Positions 9,416-34,600 of a stretch of 64,000 nucleotides of DNA are shown here, piece after piece. The stretch is taken from the NCBI RefSeq assembly GCF_054482595.1, contig NZ_CM137008.1, one strand, 5' to 3'. The first letter of the stretch is position 1, and each line of letters opens with the position of its first letter. Below the pieces are notes generated by a model. The model did no database searches and had not been told where the DNA came from. It was given only the letters and a program-made list of their open reading frames with translations. Position numbers and translations under genes: made by a program.

Positions 9416-9496
9416 GAGATAACTCCTTAAATAACAAATAAATGTGTGTTTTTCAGGAACGAAAGCTGAATGATTCCCTCACTCAGGGAAACGGCA

Positions 9497-10315: not shown

Positions 10316-10351
10316 GATTTGCTCCTTATGAATGAGTTAGCGGTATAAATG

Positions 10352-10381
10352 AAAAAGCTGCGTCTCCCGGAGAAGACGCGG
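10352..10381 (-). terminator. Rho-independent terminator ending the cargo region
   Basis: Hairpin gcgtct(loop)agacgc followed on minus strand by T-run; downstream of secreted-protein gene. Confidence 0.5.
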
Positions 10382-10525
10382 CCTGACGGGTGAAATGAAT
10401 AAGGTTTATTGTCTGAGAGGCCTTTCACTGGCGAGCCACGCATTAAGCGGCTTTCCGGTAACAATGGCTGGGGCTGTATTTACCTTTGATATTAATAATG
10501 TGCAGAGAAACGCATGGTTTACTCC

Positions 10526-10936
10526 TTAGATTTTAAGTTTGTCCTGGGCTACAACGACAGGTTTTCCGGATGTGTCGATGACTCCTACCGTCGGTACGCC
10601 ATTTTTGATTTCGAAGAACGGTTTGTTGCTACCTGAGCACAGTTGATTGTCCCCGTATTCAATCATTTGTGCTTTCCCGGTTTTCAGGTTAACTACCGAG
10701 ACAGTGTAGTCGTAGCACCAGGCACCACCACGTTCAAGCACGAAAACATAGCTGTTATCTTTATAGTTGAACTGATTCTTTGTCTGGCAATTCATACCGT
10801 CAATCTCAGTACAGGAAAACGCTTCTGTAGTATTAACGTATTTGATGTTATTTGGCAGTTTTACTTGTTTCGCAGTAGCGAAGACAGAGAACAGAATAGT
10901 TACAGCAACGAGTAAAGTTTTGATAAAAGTTTTCAT
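10526..10936 (-). CDS. Small secreted protein of unknown function (4 Cys)
   Basis: 136 aa, N-terminal signal peptide MKTFIKTLLVAVTILFSVFATA, four cysteines. Confidence 0.6.
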   Translation of the reverse strand: MKTFIKTLLVAVTILFSVFATAKQVKLPNNIKYVNTTEAFSCTEIDGMNCQTKNQFNYKDNSYVFVLERGGAWCYDYTVSVVNLKTGKAQMIEYGDNQLCSGSNKPFFEIKNGVPTVGVIDTSGKPVVVAQDKLKI

Positions 10937-10951
10937 GATAGACTCCTTAAA

Positions 10952-11440
10952 TTAGTTAACCGCAGCTACGTAGTTTTTCACCAGATACGCGAATTCATGC
11001 ACGCCAATTTCACCGAACCAAACCAGGTAGGCCGGGTCATCTAAACCAAAGTAACGGTAGCCAACAACTTCATGGGTTTTTGGGTTATAGAGTGTTACGA
11101 TAAAGTCCCAGCCGCAGGTATTGGCTTTGCAACCGTCGCCCTGGAGCCAGACTGTACCGTTAATGTTTACTGGCGTGATACCTCCACCAGGGCCATCCAT
11201 ATAGCCGCCTTTACCGAACATGCCGCTCAGTCCGACCGGTTTTAATGCTTTGTCGATAGCGGCTTTGTAGGTAGCGTCACCTTCGTACAACTCGTACGTT
11301 GATGGACACGCTCCAGGTTGTTCAGCCCAGGCTTCCGGGTTACAACTAAGTGCTTGTTTTACGGTAGCCGCTTCTGCGTTAAAGTTAAAGCCCGTGAACA
11401 GAACCGCCAGAAATAACATAAGGGTATGTAAACGTTTCAT
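10952..11440 (-). CDS. Secreted protein, possibly Ivy-like (C-K-x3-C loop)
   Basis: Internal start MKRLHTLMLFLAVLFTGFNFNAEA (signal peptide); motif GCKANTCGW resembles Ivy CKPHDCG loop but lacks His; track ORF 10952..11743 is N-terminally extended. Confidence 0.5.
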   Translation of the reverse strand: MKRLHTLMLFLAVLFTGFNFNAEAATVKQALSCNPEAWAEQPGACPSTYELYEGDATYKAAIDKALKPVGLSGMFGKGGYMDGPGGGITPVNINGTVWLQGDGCKANTCGWDFIVTLYNPKTHEVVGYRYFGLDDPAYLVWFGEIGVHEFAYLVKNYVAAVN

Positions 11441-11728
11441 TGTAAATATTCTTCCGTTGTAAATGGCGCTGGAAAATTTCTCATCAGTGAAACCTTCCGG
11501 AAGTTTCCCCCCCTTGTATGATGTATATCGCCAGTATTTTATTTCATCCCGGCTGTAATTTTTATATTCCCCGGCACGTGCAATAACGCTGACCAGAGAT
11601 ATAAGGCTCATTAATAACTTTACAGGTAATTTCATAATTAAATTTCCAGTGAGTGAATTGACAGGTGAGGGGTAAAACTTTCTCTCAGGTAATATATATC
11701 TGAAAATATTTTCAATAACACCAGACAG

Positions 11729-11755
11729 GAAAAACACCACCACAGGCGGTGGCGT
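11729..11755 (-). terminator. Putative Rho-independent terminator after patatin gene
   Basis: Stem ccacc / ggtgg with 6-nt loop followed on minus strand by tgttttt. Confidence 0.45.
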
Positions 11756-11770
11756 TTCTTTGGGGCGTCT

Positions 11771-12841
11771 TTATTTAATCCGGGCCATCGCGTTTCTCAG
11801 TGCCAAATCTGCCTCTTCCGTTATATCCAGGCTTTTCTGCAATACCGCCTCTGACCGGGTCAGTGCCTGACGTGCTGCCAGCGGTTTCCGGATATGCTCC
11901 ATCGCCAGCATCGTGTCTTCATAGCCCTGCTGACGCCAGGCGTCGGTATGTGCCGATGTAAAACTGAGCAGACCGCCGCTGTTGCCACCATCACCTGCAT
12001 ATTTCAGCCTTTTCCGGGGACGGATCTCAAGGATTGTGGTGTCCGGAAAAGCCTGGCGATCCCATAAAGAACCGTCACTCAGATGCGTCACAATCACCAT
12101 ATTGCATCCGGCATCGACCAGAGGCGTCACAGGGGTATTTCCCTGCATATTTCGCCATCCTCCCATACCACCATCACCGAACATTGTCCCCTGAACCTCA
12201 CGGGGACGGAACAGCAGGGGCAGCGCGGCTGACGCAAGCAGAGCCTCTTTCTGCTGTCCGCGGGGCAGGCTCTGGATATGCTGAAAAACGGCGTTTTTCG
12301 TGGTTCCGACACCCAGTTCAGCACGAATGCAGTCAATAATATCCTGCATGCCCCCTTCTGTGGGGTACAGCGACACATACAGCGGTAGCCCGTCTGCCAG
12401 AGCATCAGTATCAAGATAATGATCCATCAGCGCTGTCAGGGGCTCATCTGACAACAACGGCTGAGCCATCAGATTGTCAAACCCGTTGATTGTCGATATA
12501 TGGCGAAGAAGCGTCGTAAGCAGTGCTCCTGCACGTCCGGGGATCTGGCAGAGGTTCATTGCCTGGAACAATTTTTTCAGCAATGAAAAGTAAACCAATC
12601 TGTTTACCGACAGCACCTGATTATTCCCCAGATGATCCCAGAGCGCCTCCAGGCGTACGGCAGCTTCTGACAGATCGGGAGAGGCCGCGATAATGGCACC
12701 ATTGAATGCGCCAATGCTGGCCCCTGAAACCATGCTGATCTGTGTACCACACTCTGCCAGTGCCTTAACCACTCCCGCCTGATAAGCGCCCACCGCCCCG
12801 CCACCGGACAGCACCAGCCCCGTTTTCATTTCTGTACTCAT
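11771..12841 (-). CDS. Patatin-like phospholipase
   Basis: GGGAVGAYQAG oxyanion-hole motif, GASIG (GxSxG) nucleophile, DGG motif (FGDGGMGG); start overlaps upstream stop (ATGA). Confidence 0.85.
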   Translation of the reverse strand: MSTEMKTGLVLSGGGAVGAYQAGVVKALAECGTQISMVSGASIGAFNGAIIAASPDLSEAAVRLEALWDHLGNNQVLSVNRLVYFSLLKKLFQAMNLCQIPGRAGALLTTLLRHISTINGFDNLMAQPLLSDEPLTALMDHYLDTDALADGLPLYVSLYPTEGGMQDIIDCIRAELGVGTTKNAVFQHIQSLPRGQQKEALLASAALPLLFRPREVQGTMFGDGGMGGWRNMQGNTPVTPLVDAGCNMVIVTHLSDGSLWDRQAFPDTTILEIRPRKRLKYAGDGGNSGGLLSFTSAHTDAWRQQGYEDTMLAMEHIRKPLAARQALTRSEAVLQKSLDITEEADLALRNAMARIK

Positions 12842-13743
12842 GCAGCCCCCTTCTGAAATATTTCATCGACCATACTTTCAGAGAGGCGTTCTGCAGAGCA
12901 GAGGCGAGGCATGCGAACCGGTAAGTGTTCTGCAGCCTGCGTGGTTGACCAGATCACCGGATGCTGCTCTTCACTGCACCAGTCTCCCAGCCAGTTAATC
13001 GCGTCATGCCACTCGTTATCTGCCTGCTCCCGGCCCTGACCACCAAGCCAGTCCAGAGTGTTCAGACGCACGGTTGCACTACCGCCACTCTCCTGTGCCA
13101 TCTGCGTTAATGCTTTATGTCTGAGAATATCCAGTAGCTGGTTAACCTGGCCTGTTTCGCCCTGACGTATCACATCACCAAACGCGCCCCAGCGAAGCTC
13201 TTCAAGTGCCACATAACAACGTCCGGCAGGGGAAAATGACGCATATCGCCCGGCGCTCCACCATGAGAATATCTGCTCAAGATGTAACTGCGCCCGCTGA
13301 ACCTGGTCAACACGGTGGAGTTTTTCTTCAAGATGATTCAGTTTATGGTGAACCTGATCGGCCAGGGTGAGTAACTGCTCCCGCGTATCTGCGGAATAAT
13401 GCGCCAGCCTGGCTGTATCACTGACCAGTGAACTGACCCTGTCGTTTACCCGGGTAATCGCGTAGTTTGTGGTGGCAAGTGACGTTGTCATCTCCGTCAG
13501 CCAGCGCAGGGACGCCTCAACGCCCTGTGCAAGCGACGCATTGATGGCATTCTGCCGTGCAGCGCCTTCGCCGGTCAGCCCCTCTTTTAAACGCCGGAAG
13601 AACGTGCGCTCTCCGGCCGTGCGGATATGCTCCTGTGCAACATCGATTCCGTTTGCGAAATCAACCACAAATTTTTCAGGAAGACAGGTGAGTACCTGAC
13701 ATACCCGGTTATCAGCAATTTGTTGAATAAATGGTGAAGTCAC
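12838..13743 (-). CDS. Hypothetical coiled-coil protein, middle gene of operon
   Basis: 301 aa, helical/heptad-rich, no recognised domain; ATGA overlaps with both neighbours. Confidence 0.7.
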   Translation of the reverse strand: MTSPFIQQIADNRVCQVLTCLPEKFVVDFANGIDVAQEHIRTAGERTFFRRLKEGLTGEGAARQNAINASLAQGVEASLRWLTEMTTSLATTNYAITRVNDRVSSLVSDTARLAHYSADTREQLLTLADQVHHKLNHLEEKLHRVDQVQRAQLHLEQIFSWWSAGRYASFSPAGRCYVALEELRWGAFGDVIRQGETGQVNQLLDILRHKALTQMAQESGGSATVRLNTLDWLGGQGREQADNEWHDAINWLGDWCSEEQHPVIWSTTQAAEHLPVRMPRLCSAERLSESMVDEIFQKGAA

Positions 13744-16136
13744 AGCATTGTCTCCAGCTCTTCCCTCAGCGCCTTACTGTCAGTAATGAGCTCAGGAACC
13801 CTTTCATTTAATGCCTGAAGTCGCCCGGTAAGTCGTTCCTGCGCCTGCTGATCGCGTTTATGATCCTCAGAGCTCTGAATCAGCGTGTTACGCAGTTGTT
13901 CAACTTTCTCCCTGAATGCGCAGAAAAAGGCATCGATTTCCTGGCGGACGGGCTGGTTAATATCCTGCTCAATGGATGCCTGCAGCTCCCCGAAATATGC
14001 CCGGGTCAGTGACATAACTTCCTCTCTGACCTTGTTGATATTGATCACGCTGCGACTCACATCCTCGTCATAGTTTTCCCAGCCCAGGTCACTGGTGCCA
14101 AACCATCGACAAACGGTTCCCCATACGCCACTCTGCCGACGGCGACGGGTGACGGTCTCCGTTCTTTCCTCCATAAGCGCACTCAGATTTATTTTTACCG
14201 CGAGCCGGGTCTGTAACTGGCTGACTGCCGGAAAACTGATTTTTACGGTAAAGCCCTCATCCTCCAGGCGGGCATTGATGCGACCGGCAATGTTTTCTGT
14301 GGCGTACAGGGCCGTGCCACGAAAACCTGTTTCAATCCCGCTGACGATTTTCTCCAGCTCAGGCCGGAACTGTGCTTCAGCCTCACGGTGCAGGCTGGTC
14401 ACGGTCGATTCGATTTGCGTCATCAGTTCAAGGGCTTCCCTGCGATCACTGAATTTTATTTCGGGGCTGTCCGGGGCAAAATCTCGTTTCCTGTAATCCT
14501 CCCGGCCCTGGTTGTTGATACCGGACCATTGAGAAATTTTCCCCCATAATCCGGACTGAGACCTTCGTTGTTCTGCGTCTTCTTCCTCCAGCATTTGCTG
14601 TTCTTTGCGTTTACCGCTTCTGAAATAGTCATTCAGCTCCTCTTCCAGTGAGGTGCAGACCCCCGTCAGTAATTCCCGGGTTTTAGTATCGATCTCCTCC
14701 ATGGCCATTCTGACATCAGTGGTCATCTGCTCCTGACAGTCCGCGATTTCCCGGATATCCGCAAGCAGGCTGGTGATATGCGACTGCAGTGACTGAATGC
14801 TTTGCTGTAGCCCCTGATGGCGTAACAACAGGTATTCACTGATATTTTCTGCATTCTGCATCAGTTTTGCGGCGGCAGAGTCAACCGCCAGTGCCGCAGC
14901 TCTGGAATGTGAGCTCTGTATGACTTCCGTTATCAGTTGATCGATAAGTGAGCCTTCCCACAGGTCTGTCGCCCCTTCAGTTGCCAGTTCACTGTCTTTA
15001 CAGACGTATTCTTTTTTCATGCAACCGAAGGCACCTCTGATAAAATCATCGACCCAGGCTTCATCAACAGGAAGGGTTCCGTTTTTCCGTAACTCATGAA
15101 GCGCACGGTTAGCCAGGTATGCCTGGCGTGAGGATCCGGGATAAACGCGGGAGGCGGGCAGCACATCGCTGTTCAGCATTGCCGGAACTTTCTGGCGTAC
15201 GGCATCTGCCCCATCGCCATTGCGGTCTTTCTCATCAAATTTATTGACCAGTACAAACAGGCGGCCGGCTGATACGTCAGCAATGGCATTAAGCTCTTTA
15301 CGGACGTCTTCATCCGCTTTTGAGTTCATCTGGGTGTAATCCATCACAGCCAGAACCGCAGAGGCTTTCTGCAGTTGATCCCGCATCATCACTTCCATCT
15401 GCGGTTGTCCGGCCTCATTAGGGCCGGGGGTATCCAGCAGTGTGAGTGTTCCCTGGCATGCATCCATCCCCACCAGATGGCTGAATTCCACGTCGATCAC
15501 CGGCAGTTTCTGCACTTCTGCGTATTCATCAAAAGGAAATTCAGTCCCCATTGCCGCAGCAAGACGAACCAGATCGTTTAACGATGCCAGTCCGGTAAAG
15601 ATTTCCTCCTCCCCGTGGTATTCATTTTTGAGCCAGCCATCATCCGTCAGAATATCCAGCAGTTCGCGGGTATCCCCGGTTTGCTGCAGGGTCTGTGCGA
15701 CCTGCTGTCCTGCCGGGGTGGCGAGTTTTTCCTGCAGTGTGATTAATAAATTGCGGACAGGCTGAATATGTTCCAGATGGAGAACCGGCTCAGTTTTTCC
15801 GGGAACGTGGCGGATGAGCGTCGGTACAGAGGTCATGGGGCGGTTACGGTTAGGCAGAATTTCCTGCCCCACAATGGCATTGATGGTGGTTGATTTGCCT
15901 GCTTTCATCGTGCCGACAACAGCCAGCACCATCTCCCTGCGGGCGGTTTTGATTTGTTCGCCCTCCAGCTCCTCAATTCTTTTCAGTGCTTTCTGTTTAT
16001 CAAAAAGCAGTCTGTTTTCGTTCTTACTGTCAGATAACACATCTGGCTCCTCAACCATTTGCCGGAGCAGATTAATGTTCAGTTGCAAAAGTCGGTCGGC
16101 TTCATCACAAAGCAGGGCGATGTTCTTTTCGTGCAT
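13740..16136 (-). CDS. Dynamin-like GTPase (bacterial dynamin family)
   Basis: 798 aa; G1 GTMKAGKST, G3 DTPG, G4 NKFD, long helical C-terminal region. Confidence 0.85.
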   Translation of the reverse strand: MHEKNIALLCDEADRLLQLNINLLRQMVEEPDVLSDSKNENRLLFDKQKALKRIEELEGEQIKTARREMVLAVVGTMKAGKSTTINAIVGQEILPNRNRPMTSVPTLIRHVPGKTEPVLHLEHIQPVRNLLITLQEKLATPAGQQVAQTLQQTGDTRELLDILTDDGWLKNEYHGEEEIFTGLASLNDLVRLAAAMGTEFPFDEYAEVQKLPVIDVEFSHLVGMDACQGTLTLLDTPGPNEAGQPQMEVMMRDQLQKASAVLAVMDYTQMNSKADEDVRKELNAIADVSAGRLFVLVNKFDEKDRNGDGADAVRQKVPAMLNSDVLPASRVYPGSSRQAYLANRALHELRKNGTLPVDEAWVDDFIRGAFGCMKKEYVCKDSELATEGATDLWEGSLIDQLITEVIQSSHSRAAALAVDSAAAKLMQNAENISEYLLLRHQGLQQSIQSLQSHITSLLADIREIADCQEQMTTDVRMAMEEIDTKTRELLTGVCTSLEEELNDYFRSGKRKEQQMLEEEDAEQRRSQSGLWGKISQWSGINNQGREDYRKRDFAPDSPEIKFSDRREALELMTQIESTVTSLHREAEAQFRPELEKIVSGIETGFRGTALYATENIAGRINARLEDEGFTVKISFPAVSQLQTRLAVKINLSALMEERTETVTRRRRQSGVWGTVCRWFGTSDLGWENYDEDVSRSVININKVREEVMSLTRAYFGELQASIEQDINQPVRQEIDAFFCAFREKVEQLRNTLIQSSEDHKRDQQAQERLTGRLQALNERVPELITDSKALREELETML

Positions 16137-17309: not shown

Positions 17310-18473
17310 TTATCTGGAATCGATTTGGCTGTTCTGCCTGGTTGCCACCAAATCATGGTACGCCTGCTCAATCATTTCATTCAGCAGTTTTTTTGGGAGG
17401 ACACCACGACTTCGGGCAATACTTTCAAGCTGTTTGTGGATTTTTCCGGACAGTTTCAGAGGGACGGAACCATCAGCACGTTCATCACGCCTTTTTTGTT
17501 GCTCCCGGGCACTTTTCAGCTCATCAAGAAGAATCGCTTTATGCTGAATCCTGGGGGCCTGGAAGGAGACCTGCGTAAACTTCGCTCTGTTCCGTCTGGG
17601 ATTACTTTCCAGTAAAAACTGTACCTGTTGCTCATTCCAGCCCTCCCAGTTATCAAACGTGGCGCAGGCAAACCAGTATTTCTGCTCCGGGGTAAGGGGA
17701 TTCAGCGGGGTTCCCACACACCGGACCTGCATGGCGTTCCATAACCAGTCACACTGTTCACTGTCCCTGCTGTCCACCCACGAAAAGGGGGAGGGGTAAT
17801 CATTGTTTATGCTGGCCCATTCAGAGAATACTGAGTTGATAATCGTCCTCGTAGCCTCTGGTCCGGATTTCAGCAGGTAACTGGAGCAGAACCATATAAT
17901 TTCACGGTAGATTTTATCCGGATGCACGGTGCGCATCGGCTTTTCTCTGGGACCGGCAATCTTCGGTTGCGATGGAAACCCCGTGGCAAACCGCAGATGT
18001 TCCGGGGGCATTCCTGAACGTTTTTCAGGAATGGGTGTGAGTCCTGCGTTTCTGGTCTTTTCCGCTTGTCCGGTATTGCCTCCGGCCGGAGTGTTGTCGG
18101 GAGTATCTTCCGGAGGCGAGGTGTTTTCATTAGTTGGGGGAACAACAGCAGAACTGTCCATCTCCGGAATGGGTTGAGGGGCATAATCACTGTGGTAGCC
18201 AGGGGAAAGCGTTAAGTCCCGAAGGGTGACATCAGGTTCCGGGCAGTGAGTGCCACCGGGAGTGAACGGGAGTTGTTGCTTTTGGGAGAAAAATGTATTG
18301 TGAATGCGGGTATACAGCTGGAACAGAAAAAAATAAGATGCCCGTGGTTCTTTTTTTAACCACTGTGTATATTCCTCTATGGCACCGAGCTGTTGTTTGT
18401 GCCGTTTTACAGCATCGATATACGGACAGCTGGTGCAGATATCATCCAGTTCCTTTCCCACAATACACCTCAC
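17310..18473 (-). CDS. Hypothetical protein with Pro/Thr-rich low-complexity linker
   Basis: 387 aa ORF upstream of GTPase on same strand; central stretch PPTNENTSPPEDTPDNTPAGGNTGQ; no recognised domain. Confidence 0.55.
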   Translation of the reverse strand: MRCIVGKELDDICTSCPYIDAVKRHKQQLGAIEEYTQWLKKEPRASYFFLFQLYTRIHNTFFSQKQQLPFTPGGTHCPEPDVTLRDLTLSPGYHSDYAPQPIPEMDSSAVVPPTNENTSPPEDTPDNTPAGGNTGQAEKTRNAGLTPIPEKRSGMPPEHLRFATGFPSQPKIAGPREKPMRTVHPDKIYREIIWFCSSYLLKSGPEATRTIINSVFSEWASINNDYPSPFSWVDSRDSEQCDWLWNAMQVRCVGTPLNPLTPEQKYWFACATFDNWEGWNEQQVQFLLESNPRRNRAKFTQVSFQAPRIQHKAILLDELKSAREQQKRRDERADGSVPLKLSGKIHKQLESIARSRGVLPKKLLNEMIEQAYHDLVATRQNSQIDSR

Positions 18474-19591
18474 CTGCTTTTCTCACATTTGCAGATTTTA
18501 AAAAAGCAAACAAAAACCTCCGTACATGATGTACAGAACAATCTACCAGGTAGTGGCGTCAGAAAACCTCCGGGCCGCCTGCACTTTCCGGAATGCGCCG
18601 GTTATGAAAAACCGGAAATTCAGTCTCTGTTGTAAGATGTACCCTCTGATACTACGTTTTCTCTGTGTATTTAACTCACTGTATTTATTGTCTTTTTAAG
18701 CTTGACTAATATTCTCCGGTCATAGTGTGCCGGATACACATCCCGTAAACTTCTCATTTTTATATAAAAATACCTGCACTCTCTTCAGCGCATCTGTCTC
18801 CTTTAAGTAAAAAATGTTTTTACGTATTGCTGTAAATTCATTTTAAATCAGTATATTACCTTGATATTGCTGTCTCCTGGTTTGATGCGTAATCGTTCTG
18901 CCTTTCTGGATGATTCTGGTGCTTCCGGGTGCATTCTCCTCTGCACATGCAACAGTTCGTCATCGCCACGCTCCCAAAAAGCATATAAAAACGAATCGAA
19001 TTTGATATTTTTTTCAATCGTTTTTCATAGGAATTTCGTAGGGTATTCTCCGCTATAACCTCCATATTTGCTGTCTTTTTCTTCATAAATCGTATGCAAT
19101 GTAGCCTGTCTGTCAAGACCTCTTCTCTGCTGTTGAGGAGACGATCTCATTTTTGGTCTTTTCCGGGAGAGAGGCTGTCAGATGAGCGAGCCGGATATAC
19201 TGTCAGAGGTACACCCCGTAGCAGACCTGTGCTCCCATTTCCGCGATCCGGAACCAACAACACCCTACGGTTAATACCATTTGAAGCGTCAGGTACTGCA
19301 GGAAGTTCCCCCCTGCGCGGACATCGGTTCCTGCCGACATCTCACAATACGGCCAGACTGTCATGCAGTAACACCCGCATGCGGTCTGCGGTTTTAAGCG
19401 CACTCTCCCGTTTTCAGTGCATCGATAATGCGTCATAGTAAGTCTGGGGGAAGTTACGGAATGCCTGTTAAGTGGTGCCGTGGGTGGAGACAGCTTACTT
19501 TTCTACAGCAACTGCAGTCATTCAGGATGATCAGGAGATATTCTGTCAATGTCACGATCCTGCCATTTTCGTACCCGCTAAGATACTTCCG

Positions 19592-25209: not shown

Positions 25210-25815
25210 GTGGCTATTCCGTATGAACCATACGGAGATTTAACCATGACCTACAAATACAACCCCTTCTGGCAGCAACGTATTCGTGAGACGGTGCGGC
25301 ACGCACTGAATGTTCATCCCCGCCTGACGGCATTGCGGGTTGACCTGCGTTTCCCGGATGTACCGGCAGCAACGGACGCAGCTGTGATATCCCGCTTCAT
25401 CAATGCCCTGAAAGCCCGAATCGACGCTTACCAGAAACGTAAGCATCGGGAAGGTAAACGCGTGCATCCCACAACCCTGCATTACGTCTGGGCCCGGGAG
25501 TTTGGGGAGTGCAAAGGTAAAAAACACTATCACCTGATGCTGCTGGTTAACCGGGATACCTGGTGTCGTGCCGGTGATTACCGTGCTCCGGGATCACTGG
25601 CCGGGATGATTAAACAGGCGTGGTGCAGTGCCCTGGGAGTGGATGTCGGGTGCCATGCCACGCTGGTGCATTTCCCGGCCTGGCCGGCGGTGTGGCTGGA
25701 ACGCGATGATGACACTGGCTTTCAGCAGGTGCTGGAACGTGCTGACTATCTGGCGAAGGAACATACCAAAGCTCACTGCACCGGTGAGCGCAATTTTGGC
25801 TGTAGCCGGAGTTGA
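25210..25815 (+). CDS. YfjJ/YagK-family protein (inovirus Gp2-like)
   Basis: 201 aa resembling YagK/YfjJ family of CP4 islands; alternative start MTYKYNPF at 25246. Confidence 0.65.
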   Translation: MAIPYEPYGDLTMTYKYNPFWQQRIRETVRHALNVHPRLTALRVDLRFPDVPAATDAAVISRFINALKARIDAYQKRKHREGKRVHPTTLHYVWAREFGECKGKKHYHLMLLVNRDTWCRAGDYRAPGSLAGMIKQAWCSALGVDVGCHATLVHFPAWPAVWLERDDDTGFQQVLERADYLAKEHTKAHCTGERNFGCSRS

Positions 25816-26068
25816 GCACGACTGGCGCGCCAATACCCGGCAAACCAAAAGTATGGGTTGTTGTCTGGCGGCAACGATGTATCCACTCGCCCACTGACTG
25901 TTTTTTACGTCAGTGTTCCATTGTGTGACAACCACAGTGCTGTAACAGCAACCAGCCTGCTTTACCCAAACTCCAGTCCAGATTTTAACTGAACCGCCAT
26001 TCACACCCTGACCACGCTGCCCGTACCGGGACGGCTGTTGCCTGCGTGTCGTCTGGCGGCTGAGGAAT

Positions 26069-26476
26069 ATGACTATGTACGCAAAATCCTTTATCGCTCT
26101 TGATGGCAACGGACGTCTGACGGGCGCCCGTACTGCACAGGCCGCACCTTATGCTAACTACACCTGCCACTTGTGTGGCAGTGCACTCAGATACCATCCG
26201 CAATACGACACTGAACTTCCCTGGTTTGAACACACTGACGACAGGCTGACAGAGCACGGTCAACAGTGCCCTTATGTCAGGCCGGAGCGCAGAGAAATAC
26301 AGTTGATTAAACGTCTGCAGCAATTCGTACCGGATGCCTTACCCGTGGTGCGTAAAGCCAGCTGGCACTGCAGACAATGTCACCACGATTATTATGGGGA
26401 GCGGTACTGCACACACTGCCAGACCGGAGGATTCAGTATTCCCCGGACAACTCAGGAGGAAATATGCGAATTCTGA
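26069..26476 (+). CDS. Cys/His zinc-ribbon protein, CoiA-N-terminal-like motif
   Basis: 135 aa; CHLCG...PWFEHTD and WHCRQCHH...CTHCQTG motifs. Confidence 0.5.
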   Translation: MTMYAKSFIALDGNGRLTGARTAQAAPYANYTCHLCGSALRYHPQYDTELPWFEHTDDRLTEHGQQCPYVRPERREIQLIKRLQQFVPDALPVVRKASWHCRQCHHDYYGERYCTHCQTGGFSIPRTTQEEICEF

Positions 26477-26871
26477 ACTGTTATATGGCGAATGACAGCA
26501 AAGGCCATTTTGTTACGGCGAAAGAAGCAGCGAAGCACAACCGCCAGGACGTTTTGTGCTGTGTGTCCTGTGGATGCCCGTTAACACTTCAGCGGGGCAA
26601 TGACGGACAACCACCGTGGTTTGAACATGACCAGATGACTGTCGCTGAGAAAATCCTGCTGCGATGCACCTGGCTTGACCCGGCAGAGAAAGAGGCCCGT
26701 CGTTTGCATCTGCAGGGTATGACGGTTCCGGATTATACGGTGAAGGTGAGAAAGTGGTTTTGTGTGATGTGTGACGAAAATTATGAGGGGGAAAAGTGCT
26801 GCCCGAGTTGTGGTACCGGGGTATACAGCAGGGAGGGGGGGCAGGAGGGCAACTGGAAGGATAGGAACTGA
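26464..26871 (+). CDS. Cys/His zinc-ribbon protein, tandem paralog of preceding gene
   Basis: From internal Met with RBS aggagg; CCVSCGCPL...PPWFEHDQ and WFCVMCDE...CCPSCGTG; overlaps upstream gene by 13 nt. Confidence 0.5.
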   Translation: MRILNCYMANDSKGHFVTAKEAAKHNRQDVLCCVSCGCPLTLQRGNDGQPPWFEHDQMTVAEKILLRCTWLDPAEKEARRLHLQGMTVPDYTVKVRKWFCVMCDENYEGEKCCPSCGTGVYSREGGQEGNWKDRN

Positions 26872-27099
26872 GCGGTTCAGTCGCGGAAATCAGTTGCAGA
26901 GCTGTAATGATATCTCCGGGAGTGCTGCGTTGGTAGGGGCATCCCGGGATAGAGAAATTTTAGCACTTTGCCCTGAATGATTGTAGACGTCCCGAGTACT
27001 CGTACCGGTCTGAGTTATTACAGTTAGATATTCACTTTTTCTCCCGCATACTTCACATCTGTCAACGACGGATGAAAAGTGGTTCTTCCGCAACCTGGG

Positions 27100-28800
27100 T
27101 GGAAGAAAATGGATGAAACTTTCTGGCGAACAAGGATCTAAGCTGTTTTAAGTTATGGGCAACGCAATGCACTCTCTTAAGACACTTCTACAGTTACCTT
27201 GCGGATGGCGATGCAGTCGACAAATTATTAGCTCTGACGGTATAACCCTCCATCTCCACGGAAAACGCAAAACAGCACAATGTCCTGAATGCTTTAAGCG
27301 TAGCGACTCTGTTCATAGTTGTCGTCGGCGCCGGATACAGCATCTACCCTGCTCAGGGCAGACGCTATGGCTTGTATTTTCCGTCCGCCACTGGTACTGC
27401 CGTAACCCGGCTTGTTCACGTAAAATTTTTGCCGAGTCGCTTGCTCCCTTCGCCAGTTCACACCAGCAGTCTTCACAGGCGTTACAAAATTAACAACGTC
27501 AACTGGGATTAATAGCTGGAGGTGAGGCTGGAAAACGGGCTGCAACGGCAGTGGGTCTCCGTTGCAGTGCTGATACTCTTCTTCGCAGGCTTATCAATAC
27601 CCCGGAGACGAAACAGTCAGGCGCGCCTCATGTCGGTATTGATGAGTGGGCGTGGCATCGGGGCCACTGCTGCGGTATGTTAATAGTCAATCCTGATACT
27701 CACCGTCCCCTCGTCCTGCTTCCCGGCCGTGATCAGCGTACGCTGGCGACCTGGTTCAGAAAATATCCGGAAATACAGGTTGTCTCGCGTGATCGCAGTG
27801 GAGTCTATGCGACAGCAGCACGTGAAGGTGCACCTCAGGCCAGACAGGTGGCCGATCGATGGCACCTGCTAAAAAATATTGGTGATGAGCCTGAACGAAT
27901 GATGTACAGACATATGCCTCTGATACGTCTTGTTGTCAGAGAGTTATCACTGAAGAAATCACCTGAGCCAGAAATATCTGTGCCTGTAGCATCGCTCCGT
28001 CGTCTGGAACGCCTTAAACAGCACATCCGCAAAAAACGGCATCAGCGTTGGACAGAGGTTATGGCCCTGCATAACAAGGGATGTAGTTTCAGGGAAATAT
28101 CCCGTATTACAGGCCTGTCGCGAGTGACAGTCAGTCGCTGGGTGGGTTCAGGAACATTCCCTGAAATGTCAACCAGGCCTCCAAAGCGAGGGCTTCTGGA
28201 CCCATGGAGGGAGTGGTTAAAAGAGCAACGAGAATGTGGTAATTATAACTCCGGCCGGATATGGCGGGAAATGGTGGCCAGGGGGGTTACAGGCAGTGAA
28301 ACCATCGTCAGGGATGCTGTTGCCAAATGGCATAAAGGCTGGATCCCACCGGTTACTACTGCCGCAAGACTTCCTTCAGTGTCACGGGTAAGCCGCTGGT
28401 TGATGCCCTGGAGAATAATCAGGGGTGAAGAAAATTATGCTTTCCGATTTATTAGTCTGATGTGTGAAAAAGAACCGGAGTTGAAAATAGCGCAGCAACT
28501 GGTACTCGAGTTCTACCGTATTCTGAAAACCTAAAATAAATCACAGCTAAGCAGCTGGTTCACTCGGGTCCACGAAAGCGGCTCAGCAGAACTTCGGTGC
28601 GTAGCTGCGGGGATGGAAGCTGATGCTGCGGCTATATGTGAGGCAATCAGCAGTCGCTGGAGTACTGGTGTTGTCGAAGGTCATGTAAATCGCCTGAAGG
28701 TGCTGATACGCCAGATGTATGGTCGAGCCGGACTTGAACTACTTAGGCGGAGGGTAATGAGTCCACTGGCATGAAAATCTTCACCTAGGTTGAGGAAGAG
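27100..28800 (+). mobile_element. ISL3-family insertion sequence, degenerate
   Basis: Transposase split over three frames (27155..27493, 27551..28534, C-terminal ...VNRLKVLIRQMYGRAGLELLRRRV ending about 28774). Confidence 0.6.
27155..28774 (+). pseudogene. ISL3-family transposase, frameshifted
   Basis: N-terminal zinc-finger part, DDE core and C-terminal tail lie in different frames. Confidence 0.6.
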
Positions 28801-28817
28801 CCACTTTTGCACTGTTC

Positions 28818-29146
28818 GTGACAGTATGGCCTTTATGTACTCACTTTGTTACCGGTAGCTGGATCATCACTACCGTGCCGCAAATGGTGGTGAACAGCAT
28901 CAATTGTGGAATGAATGTTGCCGAAGCGACCAATGCGCCTCGTTTCCACCATCAGTGGTTGCCGGACGAGCTGCGTGTTGAAAAGGGTTTAGTCCGGATA
29001 CGCTCAAGCTGCTGGAAGCAAAAGGTCAGAAAGTGGCGCTGAATGAGGCGATGGGCAGCACGCAAAGCATTATGGTTGGGTCGGATGGTGAGTTGTACGG
29101 CGCATCCGACTCGCGCTTGGTGGATGATTTAACGGCGGGGTATTAA
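28818..29146 (+). pseudogene. ggt: gamma-glutamyltranspeptidase 3' fragment
   Basis: ...ATNAPRFHHQWLPDELRVEKG then, in another frame, ...GSDGELYGASDSRLVDDLTAGY* matching Ggt C-terminus; about 100 codons only, frameshifted. Confidence 0.7.
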
Positions 29147-29185
29147 TTGACATCCCCCGGCGCAATGTGCCGGGGGATAATGGTT

Positions 29186-30220
29186 TTATGCGGTCAATAA
29201 TCGTCCGGGATTATCGATACAGAGTTTTTTGAGGATCGTTTTATCGACGCCGCGCTCCGCCAGATAGGCCAGAAAAACATCTGGAACAAATCCCCAGCCA
29301 TTACCGCCATTTTTAGCCCACATTTGTTTAAGGAAGACATCGTGGCTGAGAACAAGCTGATCGGCGTATCCCAACTCAATGAGATGAGCGACGGCATCGG
29401 CAGTCTCCTGCACCCCTGGCGCTATTCCCTCTTTCGGGAAGGTAATGTCTAGGCCAATCATGTCGAATTCCAGCCAGACACCTTTATCAAGCATTTTCCG
29501 CTGATACGCCACGTCTTTTCCTGACGGATCCGAGTGTGCGAGAGAGACTTTATTTGGCGAGACGCCCATTTCACCTAACACAATGTCGAGTACTTCATCA
29601 CCGCGACGAAGCCAGCCCGGCATGTGAATATTCATCGCCACATGAGGATTGTTAATCTGTGCCAGCGAGGCAGCCCGCAAGCTGTTATGCTCGGCTTCGG
29701 TAAATGTCGGTGAGACACCTATTTCACCGATCATTCCGGCACGAATATCCGTATCGCCAATCCCTTGATTCAATTCTTTATCGATCGTTGTCGCTAGTTC
29801 ATCAACCGTTTTATGAATTCTCTGGCTTTCAAATTTTTCCAGGTAGGGACCGGAGGAAGCAACAATATTCAGACCTGTTTTTAATGCGACTTCTCGTAAT
29901 GCCTGCGCATCTCGTCCGATAGACTCAGACCCTGTGGCATCAACAATGGTGCGACCACCGAGCGAGATAAAGTTATTAATTTCGAAGATCACATCTTCAA
30001 TAGGTTTGCGGTCCATATTATCAGCGCAGCAATAAGGATCGTGTTTTAATGCCCACTGGATTTCTGCCGTGACTTTTTTATCAACAAGCCGTTGTGAAAA
30101 AGGATAGCAAGGAGCATCCACAACAGAGGAAAGATCGTTGAACAGATGTTCATGAGGAAGTGTTAGCCCCATATCTTCACGGGCGACGGGGCCCGTCACA
30201 GTTTGTAGATAATCTTTCAT
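29186..30220 (-). CDS. Phosphotriesterase-family metal-dependent hydrolase
   Basis: 344 aa, PHEHL motif near N-terminus, PTE/TIM-barrel amidohydrolase features. Confidence 0.75.
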   Translation of the reverse strand: MKDYLQTVTGPVAREDMGLTLPHEHLFNDLSSVVDAPCYPFSQRLVDKKVTAEIQWALKHDPYCCADNMDRKPIEDVIFEINNFISLGGRTIVDATGSESIGRDAQALREVALKTGLNIVASSGPYLEKFESQRIHKTVDELATTIDKELNQGIGDTDIRAGMIGEIGVSPTFTEAEHNSLRAASLAQINNPHVAMNIHMPGWLRRGDEVLDIVLGEMGVSPNKVSLAHSDPSGKDVAYQRKMLDKGVWLEFDMIGLDITFPKEGIAPGVQETADAVAHLIELGYADQLVLSHDVFLKQMWAKNGGNGWGFVPDVFLAYLAERGVDKTILKKLCIDNPGRLLTA

Positions 30221-30222
30221 GA

Positions 30223-31188
30223 TTATACCTCCATTTTCTTCATTGTTTTCGAGGCTCTGTATTCCGGAATAGTGGTAACAATTGCACCGACCAGTGCAAA
30301 CAGTGTTCCGATGATCGTGACCAGATAAACGGTATTGCCCAGCGATGGAATTAATACGTCAATCAATACTGATCCCAGTAACTGGCCCGCCGTTGAAGCA
30401 ACCCCCAGCATCAGTAACCCAAGACCTCTGACCAAAATGGCCATTAAACCGATAGACATTAGTCCAAGCGGGCCGCCAAGATACATCCACCAGACATCTG
30501 GTAATTGAACAGTGACGTGCCCTAATGCGACACGAATAGCTAGCGCTGTGCCTAAAACACAAAATCCAACGATGAAATTCCAGGTGATTGAAACCAGCAT
30601 GGATCCCGTAGCTTCAGCTACTTTTGCATTTCCAGCGGGCTGCCATCCTGCAAGCAAACCAGCTAAGAACGGAAGAATGGCAAGTAAAATGAAAGAGGTA
30701 GAATGCCACTGCGGTGACACAACAAAAATCGTAGCAATAACCGCAAATAATGCACCGATGATGCGATAAGGGGTAAAGTATTTTTTCTCGTCGACACCGA
30801 TACCAAAGCGATCGCAAAGTAAACCAGACAGCAATAGCGCGGAGATCAGTGCGGTCTGAAACGTTGCGACCCCGAGTGCGCTGGCTGATGCGCCTTCAGA
30901 AAATACCACCATCGCTCCACAGAGACCGGCAAACCAGTTCCAGAGAGGAACTTTTCGGTTTTTAATCAGAGAAGGAATTGCCGCAAATTGTTGCCGGGTT
31001 TCTTTTCGCGCCATAATAATAAAAAACATCACGACTAAACCACTGGCAAAGGAGATAACTGCGCATGCATTACCGTCCTGTAACCAGTGACCTAATTGAC
31101 CATTCACCGCTGATTGCATAGGGGAGAGCATACCCGCAAGAATCGTGGCAAGCATCCATAAGGGAGTTGAGTACTTATTCTTTTTCAT
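30223..31188 (-). CDS. DMT-superfamily membrane transporter
   Basis: 321 aa, about 10 predicted TM helices, two-repeat architecture. Confidence 0.65.
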   Translation of the reverse strand: MKKNKYSTPLWMLATILAGMLSPMQSAVNGQLGHWLQDGNACAVISFASGLVVMFFIIMARKETRQQFAAIPSLIKNRKVPLWNWFAGLCGAMVVFSEGASASALGVATFQTALISALLLSGLLCDRFGIGVDEKKYFTPYRIIGALFAVIATIFVVSPQWHSTSFILLAILPFLAGLLAGWQPAGNAKVAEATGSMLVSITWNFIVGFCVLGTALAIRVALGHVTVQLPDVWWMYLGGPLGLMSIGLMAILVRGLGLLMLGVASTAGQLLGSVLIDVLIPSLGNTVYLVTIIGTLFALVGAIVTTIPEYRASKTMKKMEV

Positions 31189-31244
31189 ACATCAATCCTT
31201 CTATTATAGTAAATGGAGTAACTGGTGTTACCCCATTATTATTA

Positions 31245-32003
31245 TTATCTTGCAATATGAGTCAGTATATTTACCCACAACGCGGTATAGAACGGCCAGG
31301 ACATAAACTGCTGTGTACCCCAGTGCGGTGAACAGTCACTCATAAAGCAGGCTATTTTCCCGTTGTGATAGTTACCAAAGACCAGTAATGGATCGTTGTT
31401 TATTGTTAATACCACCTCAGCATTTTCTTTAGCGATCGCCCGGTTATAACCTAGGAAAAAAGGATATTCAGAGAACCCTTTAATAACCGGATGGTCAGGT
31501 TGTGATGGCTGTGCAATAACCCCCTCTGGTTTTTCGACACGATCGTCACCATCTAACATCGTAACCGGGAGCACATCAGCCAGAACTGTATTTTTATAAT
31601 TGGCTTTTGCTTCAATTCCCATGAATGAGAGATAGCCGCCAATCATCAATAACCCACCACCGTTATTCACATATTCTTTAATCAGTTCGAGAGCGTTTGG
31701 TTTTATGCGAAGCTGATAAAAAGTATCATTTTGTAGCAGGAAAGTATTACTACCAATATCACTAATAACGATGGCATCATATTGTTCTAACTGTGCCACA
31801 TCTTCAGGGAAGGCAATTTGTACCGTATGTGCCGGCATATAGGTGACATCTACCTGACTATTTTTCAGACATTGGAGTAACCAGGTCGCACCTTCTTCAT
31901 ATTTACTTGAGGTAAAACTGTCATATCCTTTTGAATGAATCATATGAATATGCCAGGATTCTCCAATAAAGAGCACCTTTAGTGATTTTTTGGTGTTATT
32001 CAT
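31245..32003 (-). CDS. Hypothetical cytoplasmic protein, possibly glutamine amidotransferase-like fold
   Basis: 252 aa; family call is weak, by recalled similarity only. Confidence 0.45.
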   Translation of the reverse strand: MNNTKKSLKVLFIGESWHIHMIHSKGYDSFTSSKYEEGATWLLQCLKNSQVDVTYMPAHTVQIAFPEDVAQLEQYDAIVISDIGSNTFLLQNDTFYQLRIKPNALELIKEYVNNGGGLLMIGGYLSFMGIEAKANYKNTVLADVLPVTMLDGDDRVEKPEGVIAQPSQPDHPVIKGFSEYPFFLGYNRAIAKENAEVVLTINNDPLLVFGNYHNGKIACFMSDCSPHWGTQQFMSWPFYTALWVNILTHIAR

Positions 32004-32016
32004 TCTCTGTCCCTTC

Positions 32017-33231
32017 TTAATGCGTAAAAATAGTTTGCTGATAATGTATACTCTGAATTCGATGTATCACAGATTCATGTTCAGGCATGTCGGAAGCATT
32101 GCTTGTCTCCACCGCCAGGGATGCAAAGGCGCTGGCATAACACAGTGCTGATTCCAGTGATTTTCCTTTCGCAAGTCCTGATGCCAGAGCGCCGTTAAAA
32201 GCATCCCCGGCTCCTGCCGTATTTTTAACGACCGCTGGAAACGCTGGCGAATGAATGAATTTTTTGCCATCAAATGCGAGTGAGCCCTTGCTACCGAGCG
32301 TGATAACCGTGTTTTTTACCCCTTTATTGTGGATAGCTTCTGCAGCTCGTTTAGCTGATTCAAGATCGTGTACGTCTATGCCGGACAGTAAACCAGCTTC
32401 TGTTTCATTGGGGGTGATATAATCAACATCCTGAATAAGTTCGTTGACGATATCATTATAGGGTGCCGGGTTAATAATGACCGGGATACTGTTTTTTTGC
32501 GCCAATGTGATCGCTTGTTGCAGAGCGGTATAATTTGTTTCGAGCTGCAGAAGTATGACATCAGAATTAATAATCGCTTCTTTCTGAATAGTTATTTCAT
32601 CGGACGACATTGTCATGTTGGCACCGGGATAGATCGCAATAACATTATCGCCAGTACCTTCATTAACAAGGATCGTGGCAGTTCCGGTTTGCGTTTCTTT
32701 CGTTTGATAAATTATACTTTTATAAATCTTAGACGAATTCATAAAGTTGATCGCATAATCACTAAAGTGATCTGTACCTACTTTTGTTATGAAATAAACA
32801 TCAGTATCGGCAAAGCTTGCTGCCAGCGCCTGGTTACAACCTTTTCCCCCCGGTGAAAATATAAAATTACTTGCCAGAAGCGATTCTCCGATAGTGGGAA
32901 GCCTCGGCAAATAACTGATGATATCAACATTAAACGAACCAATAACGCATACTTGACTTTTCATAGTTGAGTGGCCTTTTTTTATTCCCTGGGCTGTATC
33001 ATAATTTTCAAGCGCATAAGCGATTTCATTTTTCGCAATAGTATCAAGCGAGTCTAGGACGATAAAAGCACCGCCATGACATCGAGTCAGATAGCCAAGT
33101 CTGGCAAGTTCATTAAGATCTGATCGAATAGTTTCTTTCGTTACATTGAGGCTATTGGACAGATCGGATACTTTTACAGAACCGAATTTACTGAGTCGTT
33201 TCAATATTTCATGATGGCGTTCAAATTTCAT
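32017..33231 (-). CDS. DeoR-type HTH regulator fused to PfkB/ribokinase-family sugar kinase
   Basis: N-terminal DeoR HTH, C-terminal PfkB motifs (GGKGCNQA, ...AGAGDAFNGA). Confidence 0.75.
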   Translation of the reverse strand: MKFERHHEILKRLSKFGSVKVSDLSNSLNVTKETIRSDLNELARLGYLTRCHGGAFIVLDSLDTIAKNEIAYALENYDTAQGIKKGHSTMKSQVCVIGSFNVDIISYLPRLPTIGESLLASNFIFSPGGKGCNQALAASFADTDVYFITKVGTDHFSDYAINFMNSSKIYKSIIYQTKETQTGTATILVNEGTGDNVIAIYPGANMTMSSDEITIQKEAIINSDVILLQLETNYTALQQAITLAQKNSIPVIINPAPYNDIVNELIQDVDYITPNETEAGLLSGIDVHDLESAKRAAEAIHNKGVKNTVITLGSKGSLAFDGKKFIHSPAFPAVVKNTAGAGDAFNGALASGLAKGKSLESALCYASAFASLAVETSNASDMPEHESVIHRIQSIHYQQTIFTH

Positions 33232-33339
33232 GCTTCACCTCACTTCAGTTACGTTAATATCTGTCGATGTATATTGATGTGATAATCACCATAAAGTGGC
33301 GGGGAAAAGCAAAAAAAATCAAAAATAGCCGGAGAAAAG

Positions 33340-33500
33340 GTAAGCGTTAATGGAGAATCATATTGATGCTTATTTATTGGTGAGAACTACGTTCCATGGC
33401 AGGAGTTCATCAATACGGTTGGAAGGTTATTCCGGCAGTACGCTCAGGATATGGCGCAGATACTCTTCCGGATCAATGTCGTTCAGAAGGCAAGTGCCGA
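33340..33500 (-). mobile_element. IS66-family remnant: 3' end of transposase plus terminal IR (second copy, inverted relative to 6480-6690)
   Basis: Minus-strand translation ends ...VVLTNK*; terminal gtaagcg at about 33340; related but not identical to the first copy. Confidence 0.55.
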
Positions 33501-33842
33501 TAAGCCCATACAACAGTGCACTGCGCTCGCCGTCGAAGAACATAAAGTTTTTATTTCCGAGACAGATGGCACAAAGGGCTTTTTCCGCGGCATTATGTCT
33601 GCCTCCGCCTGACCGTCAACACTGTAATAACAGAGTGCGCCCCACTGATTCAGTACACAGCTGAACCATTCTCCCAGTCTGGATTTTTGGACAGCGTGGC
33701 ATTTTTCTCCACCATCCACGCATGCAGTGAGTCCAGTAACAGTTTGCTCTTCCTCTGCCTGACCACAAGATGTTCTGGTTCTGGCATACTGAATTTGGCC
33801 ACCTGAGCATAGGTAATATGCTCACCTTAGAACAACACAGAT

Positions 33843-34600
<758 letters not shown>

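Follow-up and report, generated by a model that had tools for sequence, protein, structure and literature searches.

Gene content and identity of the islet

The window analysed here is a stretch of 64,000 nucleotides (NCBI RefSeq assembly GCF_054482595.1, contig NZ_CM137008.1) that is 100% identical to the chromosome of E. coli ECCWS199, and within it lies an islet of four genes, headed by a fusion of a DeoR-type regulator to a PfkB kinase, that is bounded on both sides by the remains of insertion sequence (IS) elements. The cluster and its flanks were defined by open reading frame (ORF) calling and a Pfam scan, with the pseudogene status of the flanks taken from RefSeq annotation. An original prediction, made from the sequence alone, described four co-oriented genes in a compact cluster, and all four are indeed intact ORFs on the minus strand, separated by gaps of 13, 56 and 2 nt from the first gene to the last. 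The first of them, rikA (33231..32017), encodes a 404 aa protein that joins a helix-turn-helix (HTH) domain (HTH_DeoR, residues 5-56, E 2.6e-15; codons 1-58, 33058-33231) by way of a linker to a PfkB kinase domain (residues 92-382, E 4e-65; codons 93-404), with an internal methionine codon, Met90, at 32962-32964. It is followed by a gene for a 252 aa GATase1-like protein (32003..31245; GATase1_like PF07090, E 2e-112), by a 321 aa DMT permease with two PF04657 DMT_YdcZ domains (31188..30223; 157.5 bits) and by a 344 aa PTE-family hydrolase (30220..29186; PF02126, E 7.5e-47, 160.6 bits against a cut-off of 22.4), the last two matching the transporter and hydrolase that had been predicted.

The cluster is, with high confidence, the E. 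coli ortholog of rikA-STM3548-STM3549-STM3550 of Salmonella. STM3547 was recently renamed RikA on the basis of ribose kinase activity both in vivo and in vitro (McCormick, Jabbar & Escalante-Semerena, Mol Microbiol 2026, PMC13432705), and the same study reports that STM3547-STM3550 are conserved in Citrobacter, Escherichia, Budvicia and Proteus and that nothing is known of the other three genes, STM3548-STM3550. It states explicitly for the Salmonella ortholog that the substrate is unknown, in agreement with what had been said of the cluster in the window, and the name rikA has already been given to the E. coli gene in one RefSeq record. Gene content, order and orientation are the same in the two clusters, which also have in common a conserved upstream region of ~100 nt and the catalytic Asp343, with amino acid identities of 81% for RikA, 83% for the GATase1-like protein, 94-96% for the DMT permease and 85-88% for the PTE-family hydrolase; at the nucleotide level the four genes are 74-80% identical to their Salmonella and Citrobacter orthologs. 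What differs is the setting: the Salmonella cluster occupies a fixed place in the chromosome, with a yhhY-like acetyltransferase gene on one side and an intact ggt on the other, whereas the E. coli islet, bounded by IS elements, lies at another chromosomal site, retains no more of ggt than its last 294 nt and is found in about one third of strains. The locus as an entity is already known in the literature; what is added here is the provenance of the islet from a ggt-adjacent locus, together with candidate regulatory sites, evidence for selection on the HTH-kinase fusion and a module recurring across phyla that points to ribose conjugates as the class of substrate.

Flanks and origin of the islet

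The native DNA of the islet runs from 28825 to 33339 (4,515 bp), and its boundaries agree, in both RefSeq annotation and junction sequence, with the predicted degenerate ISL3 element and ggt 3' fragment on one side and IS66 end on the other. The ISL3-family element is of full length (27059..28824, plus strand), with 43 nt inverted repeats at 27059-27101 and 28782-28824 that are 77% complementary. It is inactive because its transposase frame is broken, the zinc ribbon (27155-27493, Zn_ribbon_ISL3) and the DDE domain (27551-28534, DDE_Tnp_ISL3) lying in separate ORFs of a pseudogene (27155-28774) that RefSeq labels "ISL3 family transposase, internal stop". Next to it is the 294 nt 3' fragment of ggt (about 28853..29146, plus strand), covering PF01019 profile positions 420-465 of 512 and labelled "gamma-glutamyltransferase, frameshifted, missing N-terminus". 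Between the convergent stop codons of this fragment and of the PTE gene is a GC-rich, terminator-like hairpin (29152..29178) with a 12 bp stem, nine pairs of which are GC, followed by a T-rich tail on the plus strand. On the other side homology to Salmonella ends at 33339 and the plus strand reads GTAAGCG from 33340, where an IS66-family end abuts; this end and a truncated, frameshifted transposase fragment, annotated by RefSeq at 33427-33787 of the window (locus coordinates 18328-18688), occupy 33340..33787 on the minus strand.

The ggt fragment is informative about where the islet came from. The gene order in S. enterica is a GFO_IDH gene, an acetyltransferase gene, rikA, the GATase1-like gene, DMT and PTE, followed on the opposite strand by a full-length ggt and then by DUF2756 and ugpQ-ugpCEAB; the PTE gene is likewise convergent with a full-length ggt in S. 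diarizonae and in three Citrobacter genomes. The islet retains this Salmonella-type junction, the 3' ends of ggt and PTE converging on the GC hairpin that separates them, and it therefore carries a piece of a former neighbour, having been excised from such a locus; the suggestion that it was acquired or relocated is thus strongly supported. In nucleotide sequence the fragment is 92% identical to the native E. coli ggt and 81-86% identical to the ggt of Salmonella and Citrobacter. From these values we consider, with high confidence, that the donor was probably an Escherichia-like relative, ~8% diverged from E. coli at ggt, in which the cluster lay beside ggt. The donor species was not identified, no Escherichia species representative being among the best 80 of 191 loci found in GTDB.

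The distribution of the cluster was followed in 5426 complete E. coli genomes, presence being taken as at least 80% of the four-gene cluster. By this measure it is present in 1905 genomes (~35%), always at an identity of at least 99%, so that a search of the databases bears out its accessory status, and some part of it is found in 2773. The ISL3, ggt and IS66 flanks together with the cluster are shared by 1882 genomes, and in CFT073 the islet junctions are identical, including that on the IS66 side, though the remaining island differs; the same ISL3 element and its junction are found there at 98.1% identity. The shared flanks and the identical junctions in CFT073 indicate a single capture followed by inheritance and loss. 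Intact clusters occur in lineages as distant as CFT073, Nissle and ST131. A comparison of the window strain with CFT073 shows 17 synonymous and 3 nonsynonymous changes in the four genes (pN/pS 0.05), and the flanking pseudogenes differ by 1.1-2.5%, from which it follows that the genes are maintained by selection in E. coli. We therefore regard the islet, with high confidence, as an accessory locus that is kept under purifying selection.

Truncated remnants of the cluster are all that is found in ~870 genomes. In E. coli S115 (locus L086, 6001-6852) the ISL3 element and the ggt fragment are followed by the 3' 852 nt of PTE, joined to an IS3 element and then cobU, the deletion beside this PTE stub running through to cobU. 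Other variants have a PTE remnant fused to CP4-44-type genes, for example P0013 (PTE+DUF987).

The regulator-kinase fusion

The N-terminal domain of RikA matches HTH_DeoR (PF08220) with 56.4 bits against a cut-off of 21, and an N-terminal NCBIfam match to AgaR was found as well; for the RikA of the published cluster the HTH is placed at residues 2-57. Pfam finds no DeoR-type C-terminal sugar-phosphate sensor domain in the protein, residues 92-382 being PfkB kinase. This kinase domain matches E. coli ribokinase with an E value of 2e-52; its catalytic Asp343 lies inside a GAGDAFNGA motif, and N101, D103, G129, K130, N133, E231 and D343 align with N14, D16, G42, K43, N46, E143 and D255 of RbsK, the first six of which we take from the RbsK structures to be ribose contacts and the last to be the catalytic residue. 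These sugar-contact residues and the catalytic Asp are also kept in the cluster-linked kinases of Brachybacterium and Neobacillus.

The original prediction held the fusion to be an unusual architecture. The fusion is genuine but it is not rare, as a search of the whole library recovered at least 20 clusters at 50% identity with a full-length HTH-PfkB fusion and a conserved HTH motif that are 35-62% identical to RikA. In Salmonella only a 35 kDa product starting from Met90 was recovered with native translation signals, and RikA(90-404) supports growth on ribose (PMC13432705). The comparison made here covers rikA genes from 22 enterobacterial species in seven genera and 23 upstream sequences from the same seven genera. 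The ORF is intact, with HTH and kinase in frame, in 20 of the 22 species, the two exceptions being truncated Providencia copies, and in all 22 it opens 0-2 codons past an upstream stop with an ATG at position 1; a Shine-Dalgarno sequence, GAGG(T) or in most Proteus AGAGG, stands a few nt before Met1 in every one of the 23 sequences. The HTH (codons 1-58) has a dN/dS of 0.06-0.22, similar to the linker and near the 0.035-0.075 found for the kinase domain where synonymous sites are unsaturated, and rikA of the window strain and of CFT073 differ by no nonsynonymous change.

Codon 90 is ATG in Escherichia, Salmonella, Citrobacter, Budvicia and Klebsiella spallanzanii, in all of which an AAGG/AGAGG motif lies ~10 nt upstream of it; it is GTG in Providencia and an alanine codon (GCA or GCT) in 10 of 10 Proteus sequences. 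Taken together these comparisons argue that the fused HTH-kinase is a conserved and selected product and that its HTH is probably translated and functional. A kinase-only isoform from the internal Met90 may coexist with it in Escherichia and Salmonella, though on the codon 90 data it would seem that this cannot be the general product.

Fusions of a DNA-binding domain to an enzyme are known from the trigger enzymes BirA, NadR and PutA, in which the enzyme acts on the metabolite that is sensed and is encoded within or next to the operon under its control. RikA would be of the same kind, with DNA binding predicted from its DeoR-type HTH, but with a whole PfkB kinase in place of the usual C-terminal sensor of the DeoR family.

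Upstream region and hairpins

The islet has kept a native regulatory region of 108 bp upstream of rikA (33232..33339, minus strand; Shine-Dalgarno GAGG at 33238-33241), of which ~100 nt are conserved with Salmonella and Citrobacter. Two conserved boxes can be recognised in it. The first, TATGG-N6-TCACA at 33278-33293, belongs to a consensus TATG(G/A)-N6-TCACA that is present, ATCACA part included, in 23 of 23 sequences, and it resembles the CRP consensus TGTGA-N6-TCACA. The second is a T-rich box, TTTTTGATTTTTTTTGCTTT, at 33306-33325, whose consensus TTTTTGNTTTTTTTTG(C/G)TTT is fixed at -94 to -75 in the same 23 sequences; Proteus and Providencia have extra upstream copies, variation among E. 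coli strains is confined to the N position, and even at three mismatches the box is unique within the window. A third candidate, a TCAC-N6-GTGA palindrome, was rejected as a general RikA operator since it is found in Salmonella and Citrobacter only. A scan of 27000-34000 against Rfam gave nothing relevant beyond one chance snoRNA match (E 0.24), so that the conserved leader does not correspond to any known riboswitch.

In Enterobacterales the cluster is without a linked gene for a separate regulator, and unfused versions elsewhere are accompanied by LacI or AraC regulator genes. This pattern suggests that the HTH of RikA regulates its own operon through the conserved upstream region, for which the two boxes are candidate sites. 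Outside the native region, a promoter-like TTCTCA-18-TATGAT is found at 33357-33386 (minus strand), inside the IS66 end and directed at rikA, and in E. coli it could provide the operon with additional transcription driven by the IS.

A further GC-rich hairpin lies 3' of the stop codon of the GATase1-like gene (31217..31240, minus strand; minimum free energy -13.5 kcal/mol), overlapped by a promoter-like site, GTAACA-17-TATAAT, at 31231..31203 on the same strand (10/12 matches). Hairpins of 8-11 bp, also GC-rich, stand at the 3' end of this gene in Salmonella, Citrobacter, Budvicia, Klebsiella spallanzanii, Providencia and Proteus (loci L003, L004, L007-L011, L021, L056 and L083). Their sequence differs among the genus groups (GGAGTAAC.., GGGTTCGAAG.., GTGCAGG.. 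and GCGCGGAG..), and it is therefore the structure that is conserved and not the sequence. Lying as it does between the genes for the GATase1-like protein and the DMT permease, this hairpin may divide the operon into two units of expression; BioCyc predicts two such units for the Salmonella cluster.

The GATase1-like protein, the permease and the hydrolase

The GATase1-like protein matches STM3548, for which a structure has been solved (PDB 2gk3), with an E value of 1e-145. It had been called amidotransferase-like, and whilst this is right for the fold it is wrong for the catalysis. The family has an invariant Asp/Glu/His cluster and no invariant Cys, so that the Cys-His-Glu triad of class I glutamine amidotransferases, with its Cys at the nucleophile elbow, is lacking and amidotransferase function was rejected. 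Outside its own family the closest folds are those of ThuA-like proteins, of the GIFT domain and of glycosidase middle domains; true amidotransferases are not among them.

The DMT permease is by a wide margin the most conserved protein of the cluster, its identity to the Salmonella and Citrobacter orthologs being 94-96% where the other three proteins reach 81-88%; the identity is still 84-85% in Proteus, 78-81% in Succinivibrionaceae and 52-61% in Actinobacteria. This degree of conservation is unusually high for a transporter.

The PTE-family hydrolase is 74% identical to its ortholog in the Proteus locus, and it matches Pmi1525 of Proteus mirabilis (PDB 3rhg/4qsf), which lies in the same four-gene cluster, with an E value of 3e-174 (582 bits). 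Residues H23, H25, E166, H199, H229 and D294, which are invariant in 16 orthologs from three phyla and likewise in Pmi1525, are the predicted binuclear-metal ligands, an assignment that we presume by analogy with Pmi1525 and with Rsp3690 (PDB 3K2G), a more distant relative (E 1e-67). Known substrates of Pmi1525 are reportedly artificial carboxylate and phosphonate esters only. Both Pmi1525 and Rsp3690 are reported to be metal-dependent esterases in PMC5341072, and the title of Xiang et al., Biochemistry 2015, calls Pmi1525 a "methylphosphonate esterase"; the operon context of Pmi1525 has not been linked to ribose. The hydrolase falls below the equivalog cut-offs of the NCBIfam models for Php (108 against 486 bits), OPH (83 against 500) and phospho-furanose lactonase (42 against 630). 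Comparison with the php locus (yhfV) of K-12 had been proposed as a check, and it did not prove fruitful. Php is also a PF02126 protein of the PTE family but only a distant paralog (1bf6, 90 bits against the 582 for Pmi1525), and with the equivalog score given above it was rejected as a functional model; its neighbourhood, yhfS-yhfZ, we take to share no genes with the rikA cluster.

Related modules in other bacteria

Neighbourhoods were surveyed in the best 80 of 191 loci from GTDB species representatives, and adjacency was counted in the 76 loci with a long enough contig, from Enterobacterales, Succinivibrionaceae, many Actinobacteria and Burkholderia-type Proteobacteria. In all 76 the PTE gene adjoins the GATase1-like gene. 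The DMT gene accompanies this pair whenever the PTE is at least 53% identical; in the group with a PTE of 37-41% identity its place is taken by a LacI regulator and a ribose-type ABC transporter, often with genes for M20 peptidase, BtpA and PfkB. Such Rbs-type ABC transporters stand in place of DMT in both the Bacillus and the Burkholderia versions. The module of the Bacilli consists of LacI, PfkB, GATase1-like, M20 and an Rbs-type ABC transporter, without any PTE, and in the PTE-less clusters of Neobacillus and Paenibacillus the M20 peptidase genes lie beside the GATase1-like gene. Judged from gene neighbourhoods, the invariant core is made up of a GATase1-like protein and a ribokinase-type kinase, joined by a hydrolase and an importer of one type or another, and it recurs in three phyla.

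An Anaerobiospirillum-like contig of the Succinivibrionaceae (locus L085, 10809-14524) has the GATase1-like/DMT/PTE triad with an AraC regulator and no adjacent kinase. This triad is followed by rpiB and a split transketolase, pentose-phosphate genes that are consistent with a pentose product.

A paralogous module is found in Salmonella itself, where STM1379-STM1382 (orf48/orf32/orf245/orf408; locus L088, 5763-10055) lie beside ttrBCA in SPI-2. It too has an HTH_DeoR-PfkB fusion, of 408 aa and 47% identical to RikA, and a GATase1-like protein, STM1381 (PDB 3soz), at 65%, but with an alpha/beta-hydrolase in the position of PTE and an APC amino-acid permease instead of DMT; a search of the literature on STM1379-1382 and on HTH-ribokinase fusions found no functional study. 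In two further loci (L091 and L092) an HTH_DeoR-PfkB gene heads an operon with an IU-nucleoside hydrolase and a nucleoside or DMT transporter, and the kinase, with the same N-terminal DeoR HTH, is the sole regulator present. The ribose utilization systems of Bacteroides (bioRxiv 10.1101/574913) similarly combine a ribokinase-type kinase with a ribose-freeing hydrolase and a dedicated transporter. Compared with such operons for scavenging nucleosides and ribose, the cluster in the window has no nucleoside hydrolase; the GATase1-like gene takes that place, immediately behind the kinase gene, and the PTE esterase is added.

Proposed function and alternatives

RikA being a ribose kinase, the linked kinases keeping the ribokinase sugar contacts and the sister HTH-PfkB fusions heading nucleoside hydrolase operons, the scavenging of ribose from a conjugate is likely the most economical reading of the module. 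The YdcZ-type DMT permease would import a ribose-containing conjugate; the PTE would cleave an ester-type bond, esterase activity having been shown in vitro for the Proteus ortholog and the natural bond being predicted; and the GATase1-like protein, with its sugar-associated ThuA/GIFT-like fold, may carry out a second step that frees ribose, as its position and co-occurrence suggest. The PfkB domain of RikA would then convert D-ribose to ribose-5-phosphate, as has been shown for the 81% identical protein of Salmonella. Full-length RikA is predicted to bind the upstream region through its DeoR HTH, so that the kinase would be the sugar-sensing regulator of its own operon in the manner of a trigger enzyme, the CRP-like box would add catabolite control, and in Escherichia and Salmonella the shorter kinase-only form starting at Met90 may be present beside it. 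Only the PfkB step has been demonstrated, as an ATP-dependent activity on D-ribose that allows growth on this sugar, and this for the Salmonella protein. We hold this mechanism with moderate confidence, and we put the identity and origin of the islet together with ribose-conjugate scavenging at a probability of roughly 0.55.

Several points weigh against this proposal. The substrates reported for Pmi1525 are the artificial esters noted above, and the roles of the GATase1-like protein and of the DMT permease are assigned by association alone. What is read as an operator in the T-rich box could instead be an UP-like element or a curvature element. RikA scores 285.4 bits against the cut-off of 299.65 for the NCBIfam ribokinase model TIGR02152, which is still its best-scoring family. 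Pfam describes the YdcZ family as "putative inner membrane exporter", and the authors of PMC13432705 suggest that the ribose kinase activity may be off-target; the recovery of the 35 kDa Met90 product alone belongs here as well.

Most of these points return in one or other of the alternatives, none of which fits the comparative data as well as scavenging of a ribose conjugate. If ribose were a side substrate, as is suspected in PMC13432705, RikA could act on a pentono-1,4-lactone as a mimic of ribofuranose and the PTE could then hydrolyse the 5-phospho-lactone. The PTE family does include the cog1735 phospho-furanose lactonases, with a weak match to NCBIfam NF045706, and kinase and PTE are genetically linked in most loci. 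Such a lactone pathway is nevertheless unlikely, as the lactonase model scores far below its cut-off, the closest characterised relatives are the reported esterases Pmi1525 and Rsp3690, paralogous modules have an alpha/beta-hydrolase or M20 peptidases that are not phospho-sugar lactonases, no phospho-pentonate dehydrogenase is linked to the cluster and the GATase1-like protein is left without a role. We think it a little less probable again that RikA is a kinase only, started at Met90 behind 89 codons that are untranslated or the vestige of a DeoR protein, with the operon regulated in some other way. The constraint on the HTH, the invariant ATG and Shine-Dalgarno sequence at an ORF opening just past a stop in seven genera, the alanine at codon 90 in Proteus, the many fusions retaining the HTH motif and the lack of nonsynonymous change against CFT073 all speak for the full-length protein, and they have to be set against the 35 kDa product from native Salmonella signals, the growth on ribose given by RikA(90-404) and the AAGG/AGAGG motif before the codon 90 ATG.

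That the islet in E. coli is functionless, hitch-hiking DNA on its way to being lost is very improbable. There is IS debris all around it, truncated remnants such as the PTE stub beside IS3 are common, and the cluster is absent from roughly half of genomes; yet four intact ORFs at this level of identity in ~1900 genomes of distant lineages, the low pN/pS beside diverging pseudogenes and the retention of the 108 bp regulatory region are not what decay would leave. Least probable of all is a role in detoxification and export, with the PTE inactivating a toxic ester or organophosphonate, the DMT permease exporting the product and the link to a kinase incidental. Homologous modules have uptake systems in place of the DMT permease (an Rbs-type ABC transporter and its periplasmic binding protein, or an APC amino-acid permease), a ribokinase-type kinase and sugar-type regulators (LacI, DeoR) consistently accompany the module, and the CRP-like box would suit a catabolic operon; the Pfam description of YdcZ and the membership of organophosphate hydrolases in the PTE family, along with the title given to Pmi1525 by Xiang et al., are what recommends it.

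Beyond ribose-conjugate scavenging as set out above there is a more far-reaching form of it, which we consider doubtful. In this form the PF07090 protein would represent a novel type of enzyme: working with a hydrolase that can be exchanged (PTE, alpha/beta-hydrolase or M20), it would release ribose from a natural conjugate not recognised so far, with RikA as trigger enzyme and a kinase-only isoform in some genera.

Other features of the window

The islet belongs to a variable island located between tmaR and cobU. Directly left of the ISL3 element, at 25210-26871, are an inovirus Gp2-family gene and two genes for zinc-ribbon proteins, which are kept with the islet in CFT073 and S115 and are therefore part of the same inherited block. 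The island as a whole is a large mosaic (~19500-64000; record NZ_CP032237.1, 1816000-1875000) that runs from tmaR and yeeW-cbtA remnants to cobU and is rich in IS fragments (IS100, IS66, IS3, IS4, IS256, IS200 and IS1). It has extra genes for aspartate and C4-dicarboxylates, namely two aspA, several dcu transporters, ansB, dcuR, aspartate racemase and isoaspartyl peptidase, and also a second dgoRKAD cluster and a cluster of nucleoside hydrolase, MFS and LacI genes. Finally, a small integrase-led prophage remnant lies between sbcB and dacD (9063-14245; record 1805924-1811106), with an integrase, yfdT/yfdR-like genes and a tail-fibre assembly fragment.

Implications

The fragment of ggt records the conversion of a chromosomal enterobacterial operon into a mobile, accessory islet of E. 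coli, one that is now common to pathogens and probiotics alike (CFT073, ST131 and Nissle). The comparative evidence on the HTH qualifies the published suggestion of a start at Met90 and points to a kinase that would regulate itself, whilst the recurrence of the module narrows the search for substrates of the structural-genomics orphans STM3548 and Pmi1525 to ribose conjugates. Were the more far-reaching form of the proposal to be true, a PF07090 pathway for ribose conjugates would span Proteobacteria, Actinobacteria and Firmicutes, and full-length RikA would be the kinase-repressor that controls it.

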